DNA of 42,021 bases. Origin: a virus (taxonomy: Duplodnaviria; Heunggongvirae; Uroviricota; Caudoviricetes). The stretch lies in IMG/VR virus record IMGVR_UViG_2703718855_000003, positions 1 through 42,021 of that record, one strand, 5' to 3'. The notes beneath the pieces are model-generated. The model saw only the letters and a program-made list of their open reading frames with translations. It was not told where the DNA came from and searched no databases. The first letter of the stretch is position 1, and each line of letters starts with the position of its first letter. Made by a program: the position numbers and the translations under genes. Positions 24,729 through 40,568 of the stretch are shown here, in pieces.

Positions 24729-24803
<75 letters not shown>

Positions 24804-25090
24804 ATACTGTGCTGGCCCCCGGAATAACACGAATTACCAAGAGAGCCCGCACTGGTCTTTCCGGTGGCAAACAGCACCCCTGCTAACATAAAAGATAAAC
24901 ACCTTCCAGACGCAAAAATACTAACAACTGTTTTTCAGATATCCAAAATATATTTGGTTTTTATTTTTGAAAATATGTATACATATGTATCATAAATATA
25001 CAAGCCATATCATAACCGAATTAAAAATCTTTAGTTATCTCTTTTGCCGTCTGATCACCACCCACCGGCAGCTGAGAATTCCGGCACACA

Positions 25091-25153
25091 ATGAAAAAGG
25101 CCCGCCAGGGCGAGCCATAAAAACTGAATAAAAAAACCGCCCGGGGCGGCGGC
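25091..25153 (-). repeat. Copy 2 of the 65-bp direct repeat / terminator (downstream of the degenerate tRNA-like sequence)
   Basis: ATGAAAAAGGCCCGCCAGGGCGAGCCATAAAAACTGAATAAAAAAACCGCCCGGGGCGGCGG; minus-sense hairpin followed by a T-run. Confidence 0.6.
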
Positions 25154-25519
25154 TAAAACGATAAAAGGACACAATATTATAATGATTATTGGGTTTGGGG
25201 CATCGGGTGCCTCCCGAAGTATTCCACTTTACGTGGATACTGTGGTTTCCCGCTAAACCGACTCTATAAACCACCCTCGCACTGAGGAACGCCCCAATTC
25301 ATGTTTTCCGACACAGAGATGGCGCATCACTGGTTACTCCACGCTAAATCCTGCTTCCTTTCGTGGGCAATGCGCCATTTCTGTGTCATAAAAAATACAG
25401 CACTGAGTCTGTAACCGATCTCCATTACAGAATGAGGGACGATAAAGGTATTAAAGAGATCTGTTCCTCACGAAAACCGCCAGTGCTGTAAAAACTTGTC
25501 CAAAAAACAATGAAGTTGC

Positions 25520-25590
25520 GGAGAACAGGAATCGAACCGGCATTACCAACCTAAGGCTGATGTAATAACCACTATACGATACCTGCATAT
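25520..25590 (-). pseudogene. Degenerate tRNA-like sequence (decayed copy sharing the D-arm and T-loop of the tRNA-Gly scaffold)
   Basis: Reverse complement GCAGGTATCGTATAGTGGTTATTACATCAGCCTTAGGTTGGTAATGCCGGTTCGATTCCTG... shares the D-arm and T-loop with the tRNA-Gly at 24729-24803, but acceptor and anticodon stems do not pair. Confidence 0.4.
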
Positions 25591-26107
25591 AGAGCAGGCC
25601 TCCGTAACCACAATAATGACACTGATACCGATAACAGCCCTTCATTATGATTAAACGGATGCCAGCAATGACCCGCAAGACAGCGGGTAACACCCCTGTG
25701 AACAGAAACTTGCTGCCTTTCGGGTCGAGAGTAATATTACCGATAATTTATATGACATCAAAAACTAATTAGTTTTCATATTTAAACATATGTATAAATA
25801 TGTATCAGACGCATACAATTTATGTTATTTCATCCAGACTTCTGATTTCTCACAGGAAATTGCGAAAAAAAACAACATAAAAATGAACAAATTGGGAGTA
25901 CGCTAACTCCGTTGTCGCAATAAATCACAGTAAGCTCTTCAGAAATAACAGTTCACAAGACTTACATCAACAGTAGTTTTTGTAATGATTAATGTTAACT
26001 GTAGCGTTGAAAAGAAAAGTTTTGACGAAATATGGTGAACTAACAGAGCCTAACGAATAGCCCTATTACGCCGAGCTAATAGCGCTGCCAGCTAAACTTG
26101 CATGGAA

Positions 26108-26184
26108 TGGTCCGCCACCGAGGACTCGAACCTCGCACAATCAACTTAGAAGGTTGATGCTCTATCCCGATGAGCTAGTGGCGG
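26108..26184 (-). tRNA. tRNA-Arg (anticodon UCU)
   Basis: 77-nt cloverleaf: acceptor CCGCCAC/GTGGCGG, D-arm GCTC-ATCGGGATA-GAGC, anticodon arm TCAAC-CTTCTAA-GTTGA, T-arm CGAGG-TTCGAGT-CCTCG, encoded CCA. Confidence 0.85.
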
Positions 26185-26186
26185 AA

Positions 26187-26262
26187 TGGTGGCCCTTGCT
26201 GGATTTGAACCAGCGACCTGGCGATTATGAGTCGCTCGCTCTCACCACTGAGCTAAAGGGCC
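26187..26262 (-). tRNA. tRNA with CAU anticodon (tRNA-Ile2/ileX-like; Met not excluded)
   Basis: 76-nt cloverleaf GGCCCTT...AAGGGCC-A-CCA, anticodon loop CTCATAA; closely resembles E. coli ileX as recalled; 2 nt upstream of the tRNA-Arg. Confidence 0.85.
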
Positions 26263-27116: not shown

Positions 27117-27734
27117 AATCATCCTCTAACAACTTAACAACATTAACTCGCTTTACATAACAAAGAAAATTCCATGTAGTCAAGAGGGTTCAGGAAAGGA
27201 GAAACTAAAATTGCATAGCCATCATAAAGTTTAACGTACCAACCTGCTTTTTCAGGTATAAAAAAACCAACCTCAAGGAAAGGCTGGCATAAGAAAAGTA
27301 AATAATGATTCCACTAAAACTTCGTCGCAGGAGGAATCCTGTGCCGCTTAACATACATAAAATTTAGACAACTAACAATCACAATATAAAATATTTAAGA
27401 TTTCGTTATCAAAATACCAGTCAGTAGAGCGCCAGCTCTCCCGTAGATGGTTAAACATAACAACAAAACCCGCTCAATGGCGGGTTCTGGTGAAGTTCAT
27501 GCGATTAATTCGCCACGCGATACAGCTTTGCGAAGCGTATCGGAATTGAAGCAGTTTATGCGTAAGAAATCAAGCCATTTTTTGAGCAAATGATTCTCGC
27601 ATGGGAATGTATAGCGCACACTCAGCAACAGCCAACCAATTAGCAATTCGCTTTGACCAGTTGTATATGCGCCATTGCTGTCTCCAATGGCGCTGTAGGT
27701 TGCCAGTTGTTCAGGCTGGCTTACGAATTATAAC

Positions 27735-27908
27735 TCATTCCCGAATCACCTTGAAACCGAGCCTTTCAAGATATTCAATGAATGCCTCGATAGATAAAAT
27801 TACATGATTATCAGGGATTAACGTTGCGTAGATAACTTCCCCATTCTCAACGCGCACAGCAAAGAGGCCATTTTCACTAAAAATTTCACGTAATTCTTCA
27901 ATTTTCAT
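27735..27908 (-). CDS. Small hypothetical protein (57 aa)
   Basis: ATG at 27908; MKIEELREIFSENGLFAVRVENGEVIYATLIPDNHVILSIEAFIEYLERLGFKVIRE; below track cutoff; AAGGA about 10 nt upstream. Confidence 0.3.
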   Translation of the reverse strand: MKIEELREIFSENGLFAVRVENGEVIYATLIPDNHVILSIEAFIEYLERLGFKVIRE

Positions 27909-28030
27909 CAACAGAATCCTTCCAGATAAATAGCACCCCCCTGTTCGGGGTCCATCCCTCTTCTCCCTGCGCGCTACTTAAGTATTTTTGATTCTATTCC
28001 GGCATCGTCCATAACTTCAAACGTATTGAA

Positions 28031-28058
28031 AATAAAAACAAAAACCCGCCGAAGCGGG
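28031..28058 (-). terminator. Intrinsic terminator downstream of hok
   Basis: Minus-sense AACCCGCTTCGGCGGG followed by TTTTTGTTTTTATTTT. Confidence 0.45.
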
Positions 28059-28128
28059 TTAAGTGCGGGTGCGTTGAAGATGCCTGACACATCATAGGCG
28101 GCGAGGGATTTCTCCCTCGCCTGGTCTC

Positions 28129-28284
28129 TTACTCCTCAGGTTCGTAAGCTGTGAAGACAGCGACCTCCGTCTGGCCGGTTCGGATTCGTACCTCGCAGAG
28201 GTCTTTCCTCGTTACCAGTGCCGTCACTATGACGGTTAAACAGATGACGATCAGGGCGATTAACATCGCCTTTTGCTGCTTCAT
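28129..28284 (-). CDS. hokD: Hok-family type I toxin (small membrane peptide); overlapping upstream mok-like frame extends to 28341
   Basis: 51 aa MKQQKAMLIALIVICLTVIVTALVTRKDLCEVRIRTGQTEVAVFTAYEPEE: Hok signature (hydrophobic helix, LCE(V/I)R, periplasmic tail). The track ORF 28129..28341 is the mok-type overlapping frame. Confidence 0.85.
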   Translation of the reverse strand: MKQQKAMLIALIVICLTVIVTALVTRKDLCEVRIRTGQTEVAVFTAYEPEE

Positions 28285-28574
28285 AGCCTGCTTCTCCTTG
28301 CCTTTCGGCACGTAAGAGGCTAACCTACATTTGTGAGACATAGATTGGGCCTCAGATTAATGTTAAGCGTCTTGCAGGACGCGTAATGTTAACTGGGGCT
28401 TTTCTCTATCTGCCTTTGGTGTTCATGCCCGAGGCAGATAGCCTCAAGCACCCGCAGCAATTCTACTTAACTCTCCTTTTCCCGCAAACCGTTTTTATCC
28501 CCAGCGGCAAATCGAATACACCACCAGCGCCACCGCCATCGCAATTCCTACCGTGGTGAATGCCTCAGGCCGGG

Positions 28575-31937: not shown

Positions 31938-32727
31938 TTACCCCCTGAAGCCTGGCGGGATCGCACTGTCCGGCAACGAGACGGTGTTAACCTGTCGGAG
32001 CAACGTCTCAGGCCGAACACCTTTCGGCGCGAACAGGCCCTGGTATTCATTGGCGATGCTGTGTCGAATCACCTGCTCAGGTGTAAACCCCTGCTGACGG
32101 AATTTTTCCAGTTCCCGTATCGCCCCGTTAGCGCCCTGCTCCGTTCGAATCGGTTTTCGCAATGCCTGTCTGAACCGGACCCACTCATGCCAGAGTGTTT
32201 CCGGCAACCAATCGGGCAGCTCAATAGCCTCCGGCTCGAATTTTTTAGACGCTCGTTTTTGGCGAGGGGGATTTAGGGGGAGATCAGTATTTAGATCTTC
32301 CTCTTCCTCTTCCTCTGGTAGCGCTTTTTGATCCGTTTGTGTAACGCCGGCAGCGTTACCTTTTCGTTTCAGTTCACGTATTTTTGTAACTCGCTCGTTT
32401 GTAACCGCCCGTTTTTTTAGAGCTTTTTCCGTTATGGCGTTCAAAGTTAGGTAGAGAAAGCCCAACGTCATTTTCGACCAGCCATCCAACCTGAATTAAC
32501 GCATCAGCAAAACCAGCCATAAAAGTGATGCGATCTATTGCACTTTTTGTAACGCCGCGAGCGTTACAATCTGCATTACCGTCTATCATTTGTTGATCCG
32601 CCCATGCCCAGAAGCGAATAACCTTCCCTAATGCGGCATCTGGATCAATATTCAGAATCTCAGCAAGCCTGAATATTTCCGGCTTATCCGGCGTAATAAC
32701 CTCGAGCTTTATCCAGTTTGAAGCCAT
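31938..32727 (-). pseudogene. ydaU: Lambda O-like replication initiator, split by a frameshift in an A7 homopolymer (or sequencing error)
   Basis: Track ORFs 32374..32727 and 31938..32489 are the N- and C-terminal halves in frames offset by 1; the break maps to the T7/A7 run at 32412-32418 (removing one A restores ...HNGKSSKKRAVTNERVTKIRELKRKG...). Confidence 0.5.
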
Positions 32728-32760
32728 TTGTTTTCACCTTGTAACGCTCGCAGCGTTACA
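32341..32760. repeat. Four copies of a GTAAC-containing 19-20 bp element (three palindromic TGTAACGC-N5-GCGTTACA, one direct-repeat variant) in and just upstream of the O-like gene
   Basis: GTAACGCCGGCAGCGTTAC (32341-32359), TTGTAACTCGCTCGTTTGTAAC (32385-32406), GTAACGCCGCGAGCGTTAC (32549-32567), GTAACGCTCGCAGCGTTAC (32741-32759). Confidence 0.5.
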
Positions 32761-32804
32761 TTTAACTGATACCGAACAAAACAATCCGGCACGATTAATT
32801 TCAA

Positions 32805-33227
32805 TCAATGCACTACGACAGAATCACCGGGCGACCCACCACCGCTGAAATGTGCTTTCCGGTAAACGGCCTGGACTGCATCATCATGCGCATCAATTGC
32901 CGTACTCAACGCTTCCTGCGCCGCCAGTAATGCACGGCGTTCCAGGGTATCGAAGATGCAGAGTCGGTGACGCAGCTCGCGCGGAAGAATTGCCAGAACC
33001 GCAGGGATCAGTGTCTGAATTTTTTCCCTTTGCGCTTTCGTTTCACCTTTTAACCAACGGTGATAGATGTTCTGCTGATTATTCCAGTCCTTGCCTGGTA
33101 CCAGGGGCAATTCGCCGCCCCCCTGGCGCAGATATTCTTCAGTAATTGCATTGGCTACCCATGCCTGCCCTTTTTCAGCGGCCAGGGCTAACAGCACTGA
33201 TTCGATGTGCTCATGCCTGATTTTCAT
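32805..33227 (-). CDS. ydaT: YdaT-like protein (Rac-type toxic/regulatory protein)
   Basis: 140 aa, same size and position as Rac ydaT (after the Cro-like gene, before the O-like gene); overlaps ydaS-like stop. Confidence 0.6.
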   Translation of the reverse strand: MKIRHEHIESVLLALAAEKGQAWVANAITEEYLRQGGGELPLVPGKDWNNQQNIYHRWLKGETKAQREKIQTLIPAVLAILPRELRHRLCIFDTLERRALLAAQEALSTAIDAHDDAVQAVYRKAHFSGGGSPGDSVVVH

Positions 33228-33486
33228 GAATCAACTCCTGTGCATTTTGTGTGTTAGCCTTACATCCAACAGGTAAACCATCGGTCGGATTCGGGTAGAT
33301 ATCAGGCCGGAGTTCATGAGGTGTAACCTCGAAATTCGTAGCCTCTGCGATACGCAATACCTTTTCAGGGCTTAACTGACTACGTCCAGTAGCAACGAGG
33401 CTAATCATTGATTGCGAACAACCAGCCAGCGCGGCCAAACAAGACTGTCGTACACGATTTTTTTTCAAATATTCATCTAATGTCAT
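33211..33486 (-). CDS. ydaS: Cro-type HTH protein (YdaS-like)
   Basis: ATG at 33486 with AAGGTGA upstream (track ORF starts at TTG 33513); HTH ...QSCLAALAGCSQSMISLVATGRSQLSPEKVLRIAEAT...; divergent from the repressor gene. Confidence 0.65.
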   Translation of the reverse strand: MTLDEYLKKNRVRQSCLAALAGCSQSMISLVATGRSQLSPEKVLRIAEATNFEVTPHELRPDIYPNPTDGLPVGCKANTQNAQELIHENQA

Positions 33487-33590
33487 AAGGGTCACCTTAG
33501 TAATGTTCGCCAAAATATTAACTATACTAATTTAAATGATCAATACTTATATCAGTTTGAGATTATGAGCTGTGTTCATAAGATGGTGGT

Positions 33591-34055
33591 ATGAGAAGAA
33601 AACGCGAAGAAATCGCATCGCCAGAAGCTACGCAGCGTCTACGCGGAATCTGGGATGCAAAAAAAAGAGAGCTCAAATTGACTCAGGAGCTTGCTGCCGA
33701 GCTAATGGGCTTTGAGACGCAATCTACGGTTAGCCACTATCTCAACGGAAAGGCTCCACTTAACACTGATGCGGCATTAAAATTCGCAGTATTGCTAAGA
33801 GTTAAGCCTGAAGACTTGAGGCCTGATTTAGCTGATCTGATGAATTACGTCCGTTCCTCTGGAACTTATGACGAAAGTTTCGAAGGCGAAGGGTGGCGGA
33901 TGGTTAACAAGCAACAAGCTGATTTACTGGATCTTTTTGATATCCTCCCCGAATCAGAAAAAGCAAAACTAATCGAAAGGCTTAAAGGCCAGAATGAACT
34001 CTACAAAGAAGCGTTTGAAAATATGCTGGCAGCTCAGAAACGCATAAAGAAATAG
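33591..34055 (+). CDS. racR: Prophage repressor, RacR-like (XRE HTH, no peptidase domain)
   Basis: 154 aa; HTH ...LTQELAAELMGFETQSTVSHYLNGKAPLN...; divergently arranged with ydaS/ydaT; followed by a terminator. Confidence 0.65.
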   Translation: MRRKREEIASPEATQRLRGIWDAKKRELKLTQELAAELMGFETQSTVSHYLNGKAPLNTDAALKFAVLLRVKPEDLRPDLADLMNYVRSSGTYDESFEGEGWRMVNKQQADLLDLFDILPESEKAKLIERLKGQNELYKEAFENMLAAQKRIKK

Positions 34056-34075
34056 CCCCCACTACCTCGTAACTA

Positions 34076-34100
34076 AACCGCCATCCCTGGCGGTTTTTTT
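34076..34100 (+). terminator. Intrinsic terminator after the repressor gene
   Basis: AAACCGCCATCCCTGGCGGTTTTTTT. Confidence 0.55.
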
Positions 34101-34291
34101 GTCCCCTGCGCCCCCATCGCCTTACTTTTTTATCAAAAAAAACACTAAAATTTTCATTAGGATAGTACATTTTTATCAACAAAATGCATATTTATGTTGA
34201 TCATCAATATGAATATAACTAATATTATTGCAGAAGCAGCACGGCGCTGTAGGTTTTAGTTCCGCCACCCGGCGTTAAGGGGAGAGATAAG

Positions 34292-34426
34292 ATGGTGCAT
34301 TACGAAGTAGTTCAGTATTTGATGGATTGTTGCGGTATCACTTACAACCAGGCTGTGCAGGCTTTACGCAGCAACGACTGGGATCTCTGGCAGGCAGAAG
34401 CCTCTATCCGCAACAACAAAATGTGA
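34292..34426 (+). CDS. ydaG: Small early protein (YdaG-like, 44 aa)
   Basis: GGGGAGAG upstream of ATG; MVHYEVVQYLMDCCGITYNQAVQALRSNDWDLWQAEASIRNNKM; below track cutoff. Confidence 0.55.
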   Translation: MVHYEVVQYLMDCCGITYNQAVQALRSNDWDLWQAEASIRNNKM

Positions 34427-34436
34427 GGTGCGAAAA

Positions 34437-34589
34437 ATGCAAAAAATCGACCTCGGCAATAACGAATCCCTGGGGTGCGGCGTGTTCCCCAACCAGGATG
34501 GAACGTTCACTGCCATGACTTATACCAAAAGCAAGACATTCAAAACTGAAACGGGCGCACGTCGCTGGCTTGCCAGAAATACTTGCTAA
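34437..34589 (+). CDS. ydaF: Small early protein (YdaF-like, 50 aa)
   Basis: GAGGTG upstream; MQKIDLGNNESLGCGVFPNQDGTFTAMTYTKSKTFKTETGARRWLARNTC. Confidence 0.55.
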   Translation: MQKIDLGNNESLGCGVFPNQDGTFTAMTYTKSKTFKTETGARRWLARNTC

Positions 34590-35009
34590 TCCATTATTTG
34601 GATTAATTCAATATTCTCGCTGTAGGGGTATAGCAGAAACCACCAAAGCCCGGAGGTGGTGAAATAAAACCGGGCACAACACGAAGTCGCATTTCCGATA
34701 TCCATAAAGAGTCGGTCTTGTCTGTTAAATTTAAATGGTGGGAGTGCGCCTCCGGTTGTGGATAACAACACTGCTGTGTGTAGTCTTGGCGGCATCAGTT
34801 TTTTCTTGAAGTTCGACTGATGTCCGCCCTTTTTAAAGTGAATTTTGTGATGCGGTGAATGCGGCTAAGCGCACGCGGCACAGTTAAAAGTCATGTTAGT
34901 CCTTATTGGTTTGGGTGGGAAAGCCGACTGTAATTGTTAACTGGTTGCAGTCACCTGGAGGCACTAGGCACCGCATCAACAAAGTTCATTTGTAAAAATG
35001 GAGATAATT

Positions 35010-40078: not shown

Positions 40079-40288
40079 ATGAGAGAAAAAACAATGCGGT
40101 ATGAAAAAGTCAAACCATGCCCTTTTTGTGGTTGTCCATCAGTAACGGTGAAAGCCATTTCAGGATATTACCGCGCGAAGTGTAACGGATGCGAATCCCG
40201 AACCGGCTATGGTGGAAGTGAAAAAGAAGCACTCGAACGATGGAATAAACGAACCACTGGAAATAATAATGGAGGTGTTCATGTATAA
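40079..40288 (+). CDS. ralR: Restriction alleviation protein (Lar/RalR family)
   Basis: 69 aa with KPCPFCGCPSVTVKAISGYYRAKCNGCESRTGYGGSEKEALERWNKR, the Lar zinc-ribbon signature. Confidence 0.75.
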   Translation: MREKTMRYEKVKPCPFCGCPSVTVKAISGYYRAKCNGCESRTGYGGSEKEALERWNKRTTGNNNGGVHV

Positions 40289-40469
40289 AATTACCGCCAC
40301 TATTGAAAAGGAAGGTGGCACTCCTACTAACTGGACAAGGTACTCAAAAACAAAGTTAACCAAATCGGAATGCGAAAAAATGCTCTCAGGGAAAAAAGAA
40401 GCAGGCGTTTCCAGAGAGCAGAAAGTAAAACTGATAAATTTTAATTGCGAGAAACTTCAGTCCTCGTGA
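40281..40469 (+). CDS. ydaC: YdaC-like small protein
   Basis: ATG at 40281 with GGAGGTG upstream (track ORF 40209..40469 starts inside ralR); 62 aa. Confidence 0.5.
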   Translation: MYKITATIEKEGGTPTNWTRYSKTKLTKSECEKMLSGKKEAGVSREQKVKLINFNCEKLQSS

Positions 40470-40568
40470 ATTGCATTGTATTCAAATTAAAACTTCATAG
40501 CTGATTATTAATAATCAACATCGGGCGTCAATTTCAGTCTAACATTGGCGCCTGCCAGAGGTGATGCG

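Follow-up and report, generated by a model that had tools for sequence, protein, structure and literature searches.

The three regulatory genes at positions 32805-34100 of the 42,021-nt virus record IMGVR_UViG_2703718855_000003 (the whole of this stretch is referred to as the window) very probably constitute a heteroimmune lambdoid switch, with analogues of CI, Cro and CII, in a Rac-family prophage. An earlier note on this DNA had taken the region for the RacR-YdaS-YdaT immunity switch of the E. coli K-12 Rac prophage. The layout is indeed that of K-12 Rac, and one of the three proteins is a close YdaT homologue, but the repressor is unrelated to RacR and lies in a cassette that has no DNA similarity to K-12 Rac.

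A 1-kb immunity cassette in a Rac-family prophage

The repressor gene (CI analogue) is located on the plus strand (33591-34055, 154 amino acids (aa)). Divergent from it are a Cro-like gene of the YdaS helix-turn-helix (HTH) family (33211-33486, minus strand, 91 aa, with an ATG start) and, behind it, ydaT (CII analogue; 32805-33227, minus strand, 140 aa). When the listed open reading frames (ORFs) were searched with Pfam, the first protein matched HTH_3 only (residues 26-76, above cut-off), the second YdaS_toxin (PF15943, 40.4 bits versus a cut-off of 30) and the third YdaT_toxin (PF06254, 42.5 bits versus a cut-off of 21). Because these scores exceed the cut-offs and the same arrangement recurs in Hafnia, Serratia, E. 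coli and metagenome contigs, the three ORFs are genes and not chance ORFs. The start of ydaT and the end of the Cro-like gene share 17 nt (33211-33227), a true overlap rather than an ATGA-type junction, whereas in K-12 ydaS and ydaT are separated by a 22-nt gap. The earlier description of a protease-free 154-aa repressor, divergent from a Cro-like gene and an overlapping 140-aa gene, is thus accurate.

The ORF list places the start of the Cro-like gene at a TTG (33513), which would give a 100-aa protein. The ATG at 33486 is most likely the real start, since RefSeq places it there in the identical copy of E. coli RM11911, homologues open with MTL, MDL or MNL at this point, the sequence AAGGTG precedes this ATG, and the TTG would precede the predicted transcription start.

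The 1.5-kb region is 100% identical in RM11911 and two sister strains, and positions 17127-42021 of the window are 99.9% identical to the RM11911 chromosome. The RM11911 copy is part of a full-length lambdoid prophage. On one side of the region are the terminase and lysis genes and tRNAs, on the other kilR, ydaE, recE, recT, ralR, xisR and intR, adjoining ttcA (the Rac attachment locus). This run of genes from kilR through recET, ralR and xisR to intR, together with the ttcA neighbour, assigns the prophage to the Rac family. With K-12 Rac it shares the order, orientation and sizes of the repressor, ydaS and ydaT genes, the flanking genes (ydaV; ydaG/ydaF, kilR, recET, ralR, xisR and intR) and, in the RM11911 copy, the integration site.

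We compared the window with K-12 Rac by blastn. Homology is present on both sides of the switch: it covers ydaT (32807-33233, 92.7% identity), disappears over 33234-34255, and begins again at 34256, which is 36 nt short of the ydaG-like gene. The gap defines an immunity cassette of 1,022 bp (33234-34255), which contains the Cro-like gene, both control regions, the repressor and the repressor terminator, and therefore replaces racR, the racR-ydaS intergenic region and ydaS. Since no DNA similarity remains over this stretch, operators and immunity differ from those of K-12 Rac, and the claim that this prophage uses the same switch did not hold. The K-12 racR-ydaS intergenic region is unrelated to that of the window; its repeats differ, as do those of the Qin dicA-dicC region, a pattern consistent with separate immunities. 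Annotation should transfer neither the name RacR nor K-12 Rac immunity to this prophage. The left junction of the cassette coincides with the outer edge of a conserved YdaT-binding site (the YdaT-box, see below), which could have served as a recombination joint.

The complete cassette was found in 75 of 5,426 complete E. coli genomes (about 1.4%), where all copies are labelled only as a generic HTH protein. For seven members of the repressor family (52-88% identity) the contigs were inspected, and they represent at least seven independent loci. In each contig whose left flank is intact, the repressor and a YdaS-family gene diverge from an intergenic region of about 106 nt, and a YdaT-family gene comes after the YdaS-family gene. 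The linkage of this repressor family to both YdaS and YdaT extends over Hafnia, E. coli, Serratia and metagenome contigs, and the replication modules that lie downstream are of three different kinds.

The repressor joins a lambda CI-like DNA-binding domain to a DicA-like C-terminus

Residues 2-89 of the repressor are homologous to the N-terminal domain of lambda CI, and residues 105-153 to the C-terminus of DicA, the Qin repressor. In a phmmer search of PDB sequences, residues 12-81 matched the lambda CI N-terminal domain (E = 2.5e-7). Alignment by hhalign of a profile built from the 27-member repressor family with lambda CI residues 4-82 gave 37% identity at a probability of 97.3%, basic N-terminal arm included. 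An AlphaFold2 model of the repressor (mean pLDDT 74.9) is all-helical, with helices in residues 11-89, a disordered segment at 93-102 and a two-helix hairpin at 107-152. Foldseek superimposed this model on lambda CI (1lmb) with a root-mean-square deviation of about 2.1 Angstrom over about 80 residues (TM 0.78), and TM values to lambda CI N-terminal-domain chains ranged from 0.72 to 0.83. An N-terminal arm followed by a five-helix DNA-binding domain is thus common to the two repressors.

The C-terminal part is related to DicA. The family profile aligned with DicA at a probability of 97.3% (E = 2.6e-11, repressor residues 24-153 versus DicA 15-133), BLASTP found 30% identity over the last 50 aa (DicA residues 85-134), and overall the last approximately 50 residues of the repressor are homologous to DicA residues 83-133. 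Both proteins belong to PHROG 5736. Yet the repressor falls far below the cut-off of the NCBIfam DicA model NF007257 (35.4 versus 101 bits), its match being limited to the C-terminal 49 residues, and its DNA-binding domain is nearer to lambda CI. The DicA-like hairpin would most likely provide dimerisation. In overall architecture the protein resembles DicA and the Gifsy repressors GfoR and GtgR, which are likewise short repressors with an N-terminal HTH and no Ala-Gly/S24 module.

The earlier identification of the repressor as RacR was rejected. BLASTP against K-12 RacR gave no significant alignment (E = 4.5), hhalign of the 27-member profile against RacR returned a probability of 0.15%, and the two proteins belong to different Pfam and PHROG families; what they have in common is the lack of a protease domain.

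When the repressor was compared with a phage collection, the best full-length match was a 70%-identical gene of Rac-SA53, annotated as dicA and located beside genes annotated as dicC and ydaT. The next-best matches were CI repressors of Shiga toxin 2a (Stx2a) phages. The CI of Stx phage Lyz12581Vzw (Oslovirus; 239 aa, with a Peptidase_S24 domain) is 52% identical to the repressor over residues 15-89 only. The gene at the Cro position of this phage is 46% identical to the window's Cro-like gene, its OR aligns with the OR of the window, and PR and PRM are divergent in both, although the PRM -10 element of Lyz12581Vzw lies 4 nt further from the CI ATG. Since N-terminal domain, OR and Cro are homologous while the CI C-terminus differs, the window's switch is, judged by these alignments, a relative of an SOS-cleavable switch in which the repressor has acquired a DicA-type C-terminal module in exchange for its own: where lambda and Stx CI have their oligomerisation and self-cleavage domain, it has a helical hairpin of about 50 residues. 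Several residues of the recognition helix also differ from lambda and Stx CI, and cross-immunity with these repressors is for that reason not expected.

Cro and CII analogues and the YdaT-box

The window's YdaT is 94% identical to K-12 YdaT over all 140 residues and keeps the DNA-binding residues H56, R57 and W58. It belongs to PHROG 163, 'CII-like transcriptional activator' (E = 3e-36), and has PDB matches 3c4r and 8bt1. The Cro-like protein is a distant relative of K-12 YdaS (42% identity, with only 50 aa aligned), falls into PHROG 35 (E = 4e-28) and matches the PDB 'Cro' entries 8c7k and 8co2; the literature searched for these two structures yielded irrelevant chemistry papers only. DicC was rejected as the Cro partner, as the Cro-like protein gave no alignment to it. 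The window thus differs from Qin both in its YdaS-family Cro analogue and in the presence of YdaT as CII analogue. Of the three Rac names put on these genes in the earlier note, BLASTP bore out YdaT, placed the Cro-like protein at a distance from YdaS and gave nothing for RacR.

The literature describes YdaS and YdaT as analogues of Cro and CII, not as a toxin-antitoxin pair (PMC5917428, PMC8630535, PMC9986795, PMC11879457). YdaT binds DNA as a tetramer and recognises TTGATT-N6-AATCAA; in K-12 this box spans the ydaT start codon, where bound YdaT switches on a reverse promoter and so raises racR expression, an action analogous to that of lambda CII at PRE (PMC11879457, PMC9986795, PMC8630535). 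The function of the box has been established experimentally in both K-12 and CP-933P of E. coli O157:H7 (PMC11879457, PMC9986795, PMC8630535). Lethality or filamentation on RacR depletion, acting via ydaS/ydaT expression, is reported for K-12 (PMC5700377, PMC5700373). The earlier description of the products of ydaS and ydaT as toxic when derepressed is dated, and the YdaS-family protein and YdaT of the window are best read as Cro and CII analogues, not toxins.

The YdaT-box of the window, TTGATTCATGAAAATCAG (33217-33234, minus strand), is an inverted repeat over the ydaT start codon with one mismatch to the published consensus, and it forms the left edge of the cassette. Its offset from the ydaT ATG (-7) is the same in K-12 and in five related loci. 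By analogy with K-12, YdaT would bind this repeat at its own start codon and activate reverse transcription, from a promoter within the cassette, toward the repressor gene. The 91-aa Cro analogue, in turn, would shut off the maintenance promoter of the repressor.

The only other site in the 42 kb with at most one mismatch to the YdaT-box is CTGATTATTAATAATCAA (40501-40518, one mismatch), which precedes the xisR start (40569) by 50 nt. K-12 Rac has the identical site, and with the -10-like hexamer TAACAT at 40540-40545 the centre of the box would fall near -42. A 2025 paper on YdaT targets does not mention xisR. The site is a candidate analogue of PI, a YdaT-activated xis/int promoter, at which YdaT probably acts as well; if so, it would give YdaT a PI-type target and complete a CII-like regulon.

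A close, experimentally studied parallel to this arrangement is the PaaR2-YdaS-YdaT system of CP-933P, with a peptidase-free CI analogue, YdaS as Cro, YdaT as CII and the same TTGATT-N6-AATCAA box; its bistability has been demonstrated experimentally. There, however, the repressor gene heads a toxin-antitoxin operon (paaA2-parE2) that is absent from the window, and CP-933P YdaT is only about 30% identical to Rac YdaT.

Duplicated predicted early promoters flank the repressor

Two consensus matches to an early promoter, both reading TTGATC-17-TAATAT, flank the repressor gene, and this pattern occurs just twice in the window. The PR-like promoter (33515-33543, minus strand) is directed toward the Cro-like gene, ydaT and the replication genes. 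The PL-like promoter (34197-34225, plus strand) is directed toward the ydaG/ydaF-like genes, kilR, recET and xis/int; it lies beyond the terminator of the repressor and ahead of the ydaG-like gene. Aligned with each other, the PR and PL regions give a 44-nt inverted repeat (33509-33552 versus 34188-34231) with a similarity score of 18, compared with 8.8 ± 1.3 (maximum 15) in 1,000 dinucleotide shuffles. Among 13 related loci examined, the PR copy was present in all and the PL copy in 12. This is the arrangement of OR/PR and OL/PL around lambda cI, and PL- and PR-type promoters likewise flank the repressor in the DicA/Gifsy class; the PR -10 hexamer TAATAT is shared with K-12 Rac as well.

The TGATCA motif noted earlier in the divergent promoter region (33536-33550) was located at 33537-33542. 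There it coincides with the PR -35 element (TTGATC), which explains it better than an operator, and the motif was rejected in the latter role. The -35 and -10 columns of PR are invariant in the family alignment; of the motif itself only the TCAA part (TTGA of the -35 element) is invariant family-wide, and TTGACT takes its place in some loci.

A promoter scan detected a PRM-like maintenance promoter, TTGAGA-16-TAAGAT (33557-33584, plus strand). It is weak, lies back to back with PR, and ends 6 nt from the ATG of the repressor. Across the short-repressor family its -10 element (ATAA[A/G]AT) and the 6-nt spacing to the ATG are conserved while the six bases themselves vary, which suggests that the maintenance mRNA is leaderless or nearly so, as for lambda cI. 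Expression of the repressor would thus depend on this weak PRM-like promoter, with a transcript that is probably leaderless. Its gene is followed by an intrinsic terminator (34075-34103, plus strand), with a 9-bp stem (34075-34096) containing five G-C pairs and then a T-run.

Several further features of the control regions were observed. Both early promoters carry a Dam site (GATC) within the -35 hexamer (33538-33541 and 34199-34202), and TTGATC instead of the consensus TTGACA is retained at PR in most relatives, so sensitivity of PR and PL to the state of Dam methylation is conceivable. The predicted PL leader (34232-34291) starts with a hairpin, GCAGC-ACGGC-GCTGT (34236-34250), followed by AGTTCCGCCACCCGGCGTTAAGGGGA, and is conserved in E. 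coli and Salmonella relatives as well as in the leader of the Qin dicB promoter. Its role might be that of a stabilising 5' hairpin or of a nut-like element. The first PL gene encodes a DUF1391 protein, as in the Qin/Gifsy class. An exact 11-mer, ATAAGATGGTG, occurs just before the repressor ATG (33578-33588) and again across the start codon of the ydaG-like gene (34287-34297); about 0.09 such repeats are expected in the 881-nt stretch. Between the terminator and PL, a direct repeat TAC(T/A)TTTTTATCAA(A/C)AAAA is found twice, at 34123-34141 and 34166-34184, 43 nt apart. It is not conserved in more distant relatives and may be an UP-like element or a site for an architectural protein.

Candidate operators

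The lambda CI-like N-terminal domain of the repressor would bind operators that overlap both early promoters. To which sequences is a more doubtful matter, and the assignment below is tentative. An unbiased count of 8-mers in the control regions of the five closest loci placed ATATGCAT/ATGCATAT at the top (8 observed, 0.1 expected), with ATGAATAT next. All close relatives have the 10-bp element ATATG(A/C)ATAT at a constant place in the PR spacer, the PL spacer or both, and many have a further copy at the -35 element. A matrix derived from the relatives only gave as its top match in the window ATATGAATAT (34207-34216) in the PL spacer, the candidate OL1. It also gave AAATGCATAT (34182-34191), the candidate OL2, which lies upstream of OL1 at a centre-to-centre distance of 25 bp; at the corresponding position two related loci, L012 and L014, carry a perfect ATATGCATAT. 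On the PR side, copies of ATATG(A/C)ATAT were found at 33543-33552 (two mismatches, abutting the PR -35 element; a weak, low-confidence candidate OR), at 33524-33533 in the PR spacer (three mismatches) and at 33469-33478 in the first codons of the Cro-like gene (one mismatch).

Three dyads were read in the same regions. AATAT-N5-ATATT (34212-34226) overlaps OL1 and covers the PL -10 element; close relatives keep it with a variable centre. AATAT-N11-ATATT is present family-wide. The third, TTATGA-N7-TCATAA (33563-33581), extends over the spacer and -10 element of PRM and is a candidate for an OR3-like site at which Cro, or the repressor in negative autoregulation, would bind; in L012, a Salmonella relative, its arms are retained and the spacer GCTGTGT is changed to GTCACAT.

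The window is without lambda-type TATCACCGC operators. TATC-N9-GATA operators of the lambda type had been suggested by the conserved Q44/S45 in the recognition helix, but the idea was dropped because the conserved TATCAGTTT block has no symmetric partner. The candidate operators differ also from the TGTTAG...CTAACA-type palindromes of the Qin dicA-dicC region.

Induction of the switch and alternative readings

No match to Peptidase_S24 (PF00717) was found in the repressor by Pfam at E <= 0.01, and no S24 chain was among the 50 Foldseek matches listed for the model. The same domain was readily detected in the positive control, the Lyz12581Vzw CI (98.8 bits). With profile search, structure model and fold search all negative, a cryptic S24 domain was rejected, and the earlier description of the repressor as non-SOS-cleavable is borne out: lacking this domain, the protein cannot self-cleave via RecA. 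All 27 members of the family are 151-161 aa long with the same C-terminus, so the short architecture is stable and not a recent truncation.

'Non-SOS-cleavable' does not imply 'not SOS-inducible', because antirepressors inactivate repressors of the DicA and Gifsy types (PMC3121763, PMC10448788). In Qin, Rem has this role for DicA (PMC10448788), and GfoA and GftA, which are LexA-controlled, inactivate the short Gifsy repressors (PMC3121763). We consider release of the repressor by a small antirepressor the most likely route of induction, with stochastic or stress-driven flipping as the main alternative. The window contains a Rem-family ORF (27735-27908, minus strand, 57 aa; 27735-27911 inclusive, 57/58 aa) adjoining hokD/sok, much as a Rem-family ORF adjoins hokD in Qin. 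In tblastn, Qin Rem matched it with 63% identity over Rem residues 1-27, and it falls into PHROG 340, the family of Rem (E = 1.7e-17). Rac-SA53 carries a full-length, 70%-identical gene annotated rem alongside its 70%-identical repressor. From the function reported for Rem (PMC10448788), this ORF could be the antirepressor of the window's repressor, an assignment that is possible but somewhat doubtful.

It may instead be that the switch has no dedicated inducer, that stochastic or stress-dependent instability of the repressor flips it, and that the Rem-like ORF is unrelated or a dead remnant. In Qin, about 1% of cells turn on the promoter dicBp independently of Rem and RecA, and dicBp answers urea and heat through DicC (PMC10448788). 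RefSeq marks the Rem-like ORF in RM11911 as an incomplete pseudogene, and the absence of LexA boxes from the window likewise speaks for this reading. The ORF is nevertheless intact, it covers positions 13-68 of the 85-position Rem-family profile, nearly the stretch covered by Rem itself (12-68), and it has a full-length, 70%-identical counterpart in the one sequenced phage that carries the same repressor family. We therefore regard the absence of an inducer as rather unlikely. There is no exact LexA box (CTGT-N8-ACAG) in the 42 kb, and the 19 boxes with one mismatch are not far from what chance predicts (11.5 ± 3.8), 5 of 100 shuffles reaching 19.

A second reading would take the region as a true RacR-YdaS-YdaT module of the K-12 kind, in which a RacR-type repressor chiefly silences two toxin genes as a toxin-repressor or atypical toxin-antitoxin system. 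Gene order and sizes match K-12, YdaT is 94% identical, Pfam calls both families 'toxin', and depletion of RacR is lethal in K-12 (PMC5700377, PMC5700373). Against this, the repressor is unrelated to RacR, and the repressor-operator-cro segment lacks DNA similarity to K-12. Moreover, the literature argues against a type II toxin-antitoxin pairing of YdaS and YdaT (PMC8630535, PMC5917428) in favour of their roles as Cro and CII analogues (PMC9986795, PMC11879457). Finally, the locus belongs to a full-length lambdoid prophage with duplicated OR/OL-type control regions, which a phage switch needs and a toxin-antitoxin system does not. This makes a K-12-kind module highly improbable.

That the repressor is a degenerate SOS-cleavable CI, with a truncated or cryptic S24 domain and still inactivated by RecA-stimulated self-cleavage, is very improbable. 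In favour are the 52% identity of the N-terminal domains of the repressor and of an S24-bearing Stx-phage CI and the homologous operator regions and cro genes of the two phages. Against it, Pfam detects no S24 domain at E <= 0.01, the approximately 50 residues past the linker are predicted to be helical where the S24 fold is beta-rich, they are homologous to the DicA C-terminus, and the 27 family members agree in length and C-terminus.

Several observations count against a lambdoid switch with a DicA-type repressor and an antirepressor, or against parts of it. Every database name in the repressor family is a generic 'helix-turn-helix domain-containing protein', and the C-terminal hairpin was modelled with moderate confidence only (pLDDT 55-78). 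At the operators, the element with the best support is a near-palindrome of 10 bp, a short site for an HTH dimer. Its copies at PR are degenerate in the window (2-3 mismatches), the two strong elements being at PL, and three models (the near-palindrome, AATAT-N5-ATATT and AATAT-N11-ATATT) fit the same sequences. The antirepressor link is weakened by the RefSeq pseudogene label, by the lack of a LexA box and by the absence of even a one-mismatch box just upstream of the Rem-like ORF (27912-28100). No sigma-70-like reverse promoter scoring at least 8/12 was found inside the Cro-like gene, nor consistently in relatives, and a PRE analogue at this place was dropped; for an activator-dependent promoter the absence of a consensus-like sequence is not unexpected. 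Last, a +1 frameshift in the ydaU-like replication gene (see below) means that the window's prophage copy may be defective.

Relation to annotated switches and implications

The closest annotated phage record is Rac-SA53 (KU052037), an LT-II-encoding Rac-like prophage. Besides its repressor (annotated dicA) and its rem gene, each 70% identical to the window's counterpart, it has ydaT, a gene of the YdaS family that is annotated dicC, and the same PR/PL design. Its repressor is another allele of the same family: the recognition helices, SQGTVSQYLNGK in Rac-SA53 and TQSTVSHYLNGK in the window, differ, as do the promoter spacers. Rac-SA53 probably represents another immunity specificity. The region described here is accordingly a heteroimmune allele of the Rac-type lambdoid switch, which in outline has already been annotated in one phage record, and the general picture of phage switches is unaltered. 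The most useful by-products of the analysis are the domain-swap kinship with the SOS-cleavable Stx-phage repressor and the conserved, unreported YdaT-box before xisR.

Lambdoid mosaicism is apparent here at two scales, as the exchange of a 1-kb cassette at a regulator-binding site and as an intragenic domain swap in the repressor, the latter separating DNA recognition from the mechanism of induction. Because a CI-type domain with homologous operators and Cro occurs with S24 in the Stx phage and, in the window, with a DicA-type hairpin that would receive a Rem-family antirepressor, the C-terminal module might be an exchangeable 'induction cartridge' on a CI-type DNA-binding domain. We put this forward as a speculation that is unlikely to hold as it stands. 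If true, a phage could pass from RecA-cleavage to antirepressor induction, or back, through an exchange of about 50-130 residues at the linker, the rest of the switch being unchanged, and non-cleavable repressors of Rac-like prophages could cross-repress related SOS-inducible phages with compatible operators and keep them uninducible.

Neighbouring genes and other features of the window

No Rfam family was found within 32805-34300. Elsewhere Rfam detected the RalA antitoxin small RNA (40287-40465, minus strand, 218 bits) and sok, the antisense RNA of hokD (28279-28453, minus strand, 118 bits).

On the PL side, sieB (superinfection exclusion), which in K-12 Rac lies between ydaF and kilR, is absent from the window (34569-34614 compared with K-12). 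About 410 nt between the DUF1391 gene and kilR are without an annotated gene. Near 27652, a segment of about 1.3 kb of RM11911 (between the Q-like region and the DUF1367 gene) is missing from the otherwise 99.9%-identical window, which therefore comes from a close but different strain.

Beside ydaT, one extra T in a T-run at about 32411-32418 breaks the ydaU-like replication gene (31938-32727, minus strand) into overlapping ORFs of 117 and 183 aa; its RM11911 counterpart is a single 262-aa coding sequence. The split is either a real frameshift, leaving the prophage replication-defective, or a homopolymer sequencing error. The 5' part of this gene (32300-32806) has no DNA similarity to K-12 ydaU, whereas the 3' part and ydaV are about 92% identical. 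The dissimilar stretch is a second mosaic patch adjoining the immunity cassette, and a different origin or initiator specificity may lie behind it.

Finally, a tRNA cluster is located at 24731-26262 (minus strand), in which ARAGORN identified Gly-tcc, Arg-tct and Met/Ile-cat, with a weak fourth tRNA-like match at 25517-25586.

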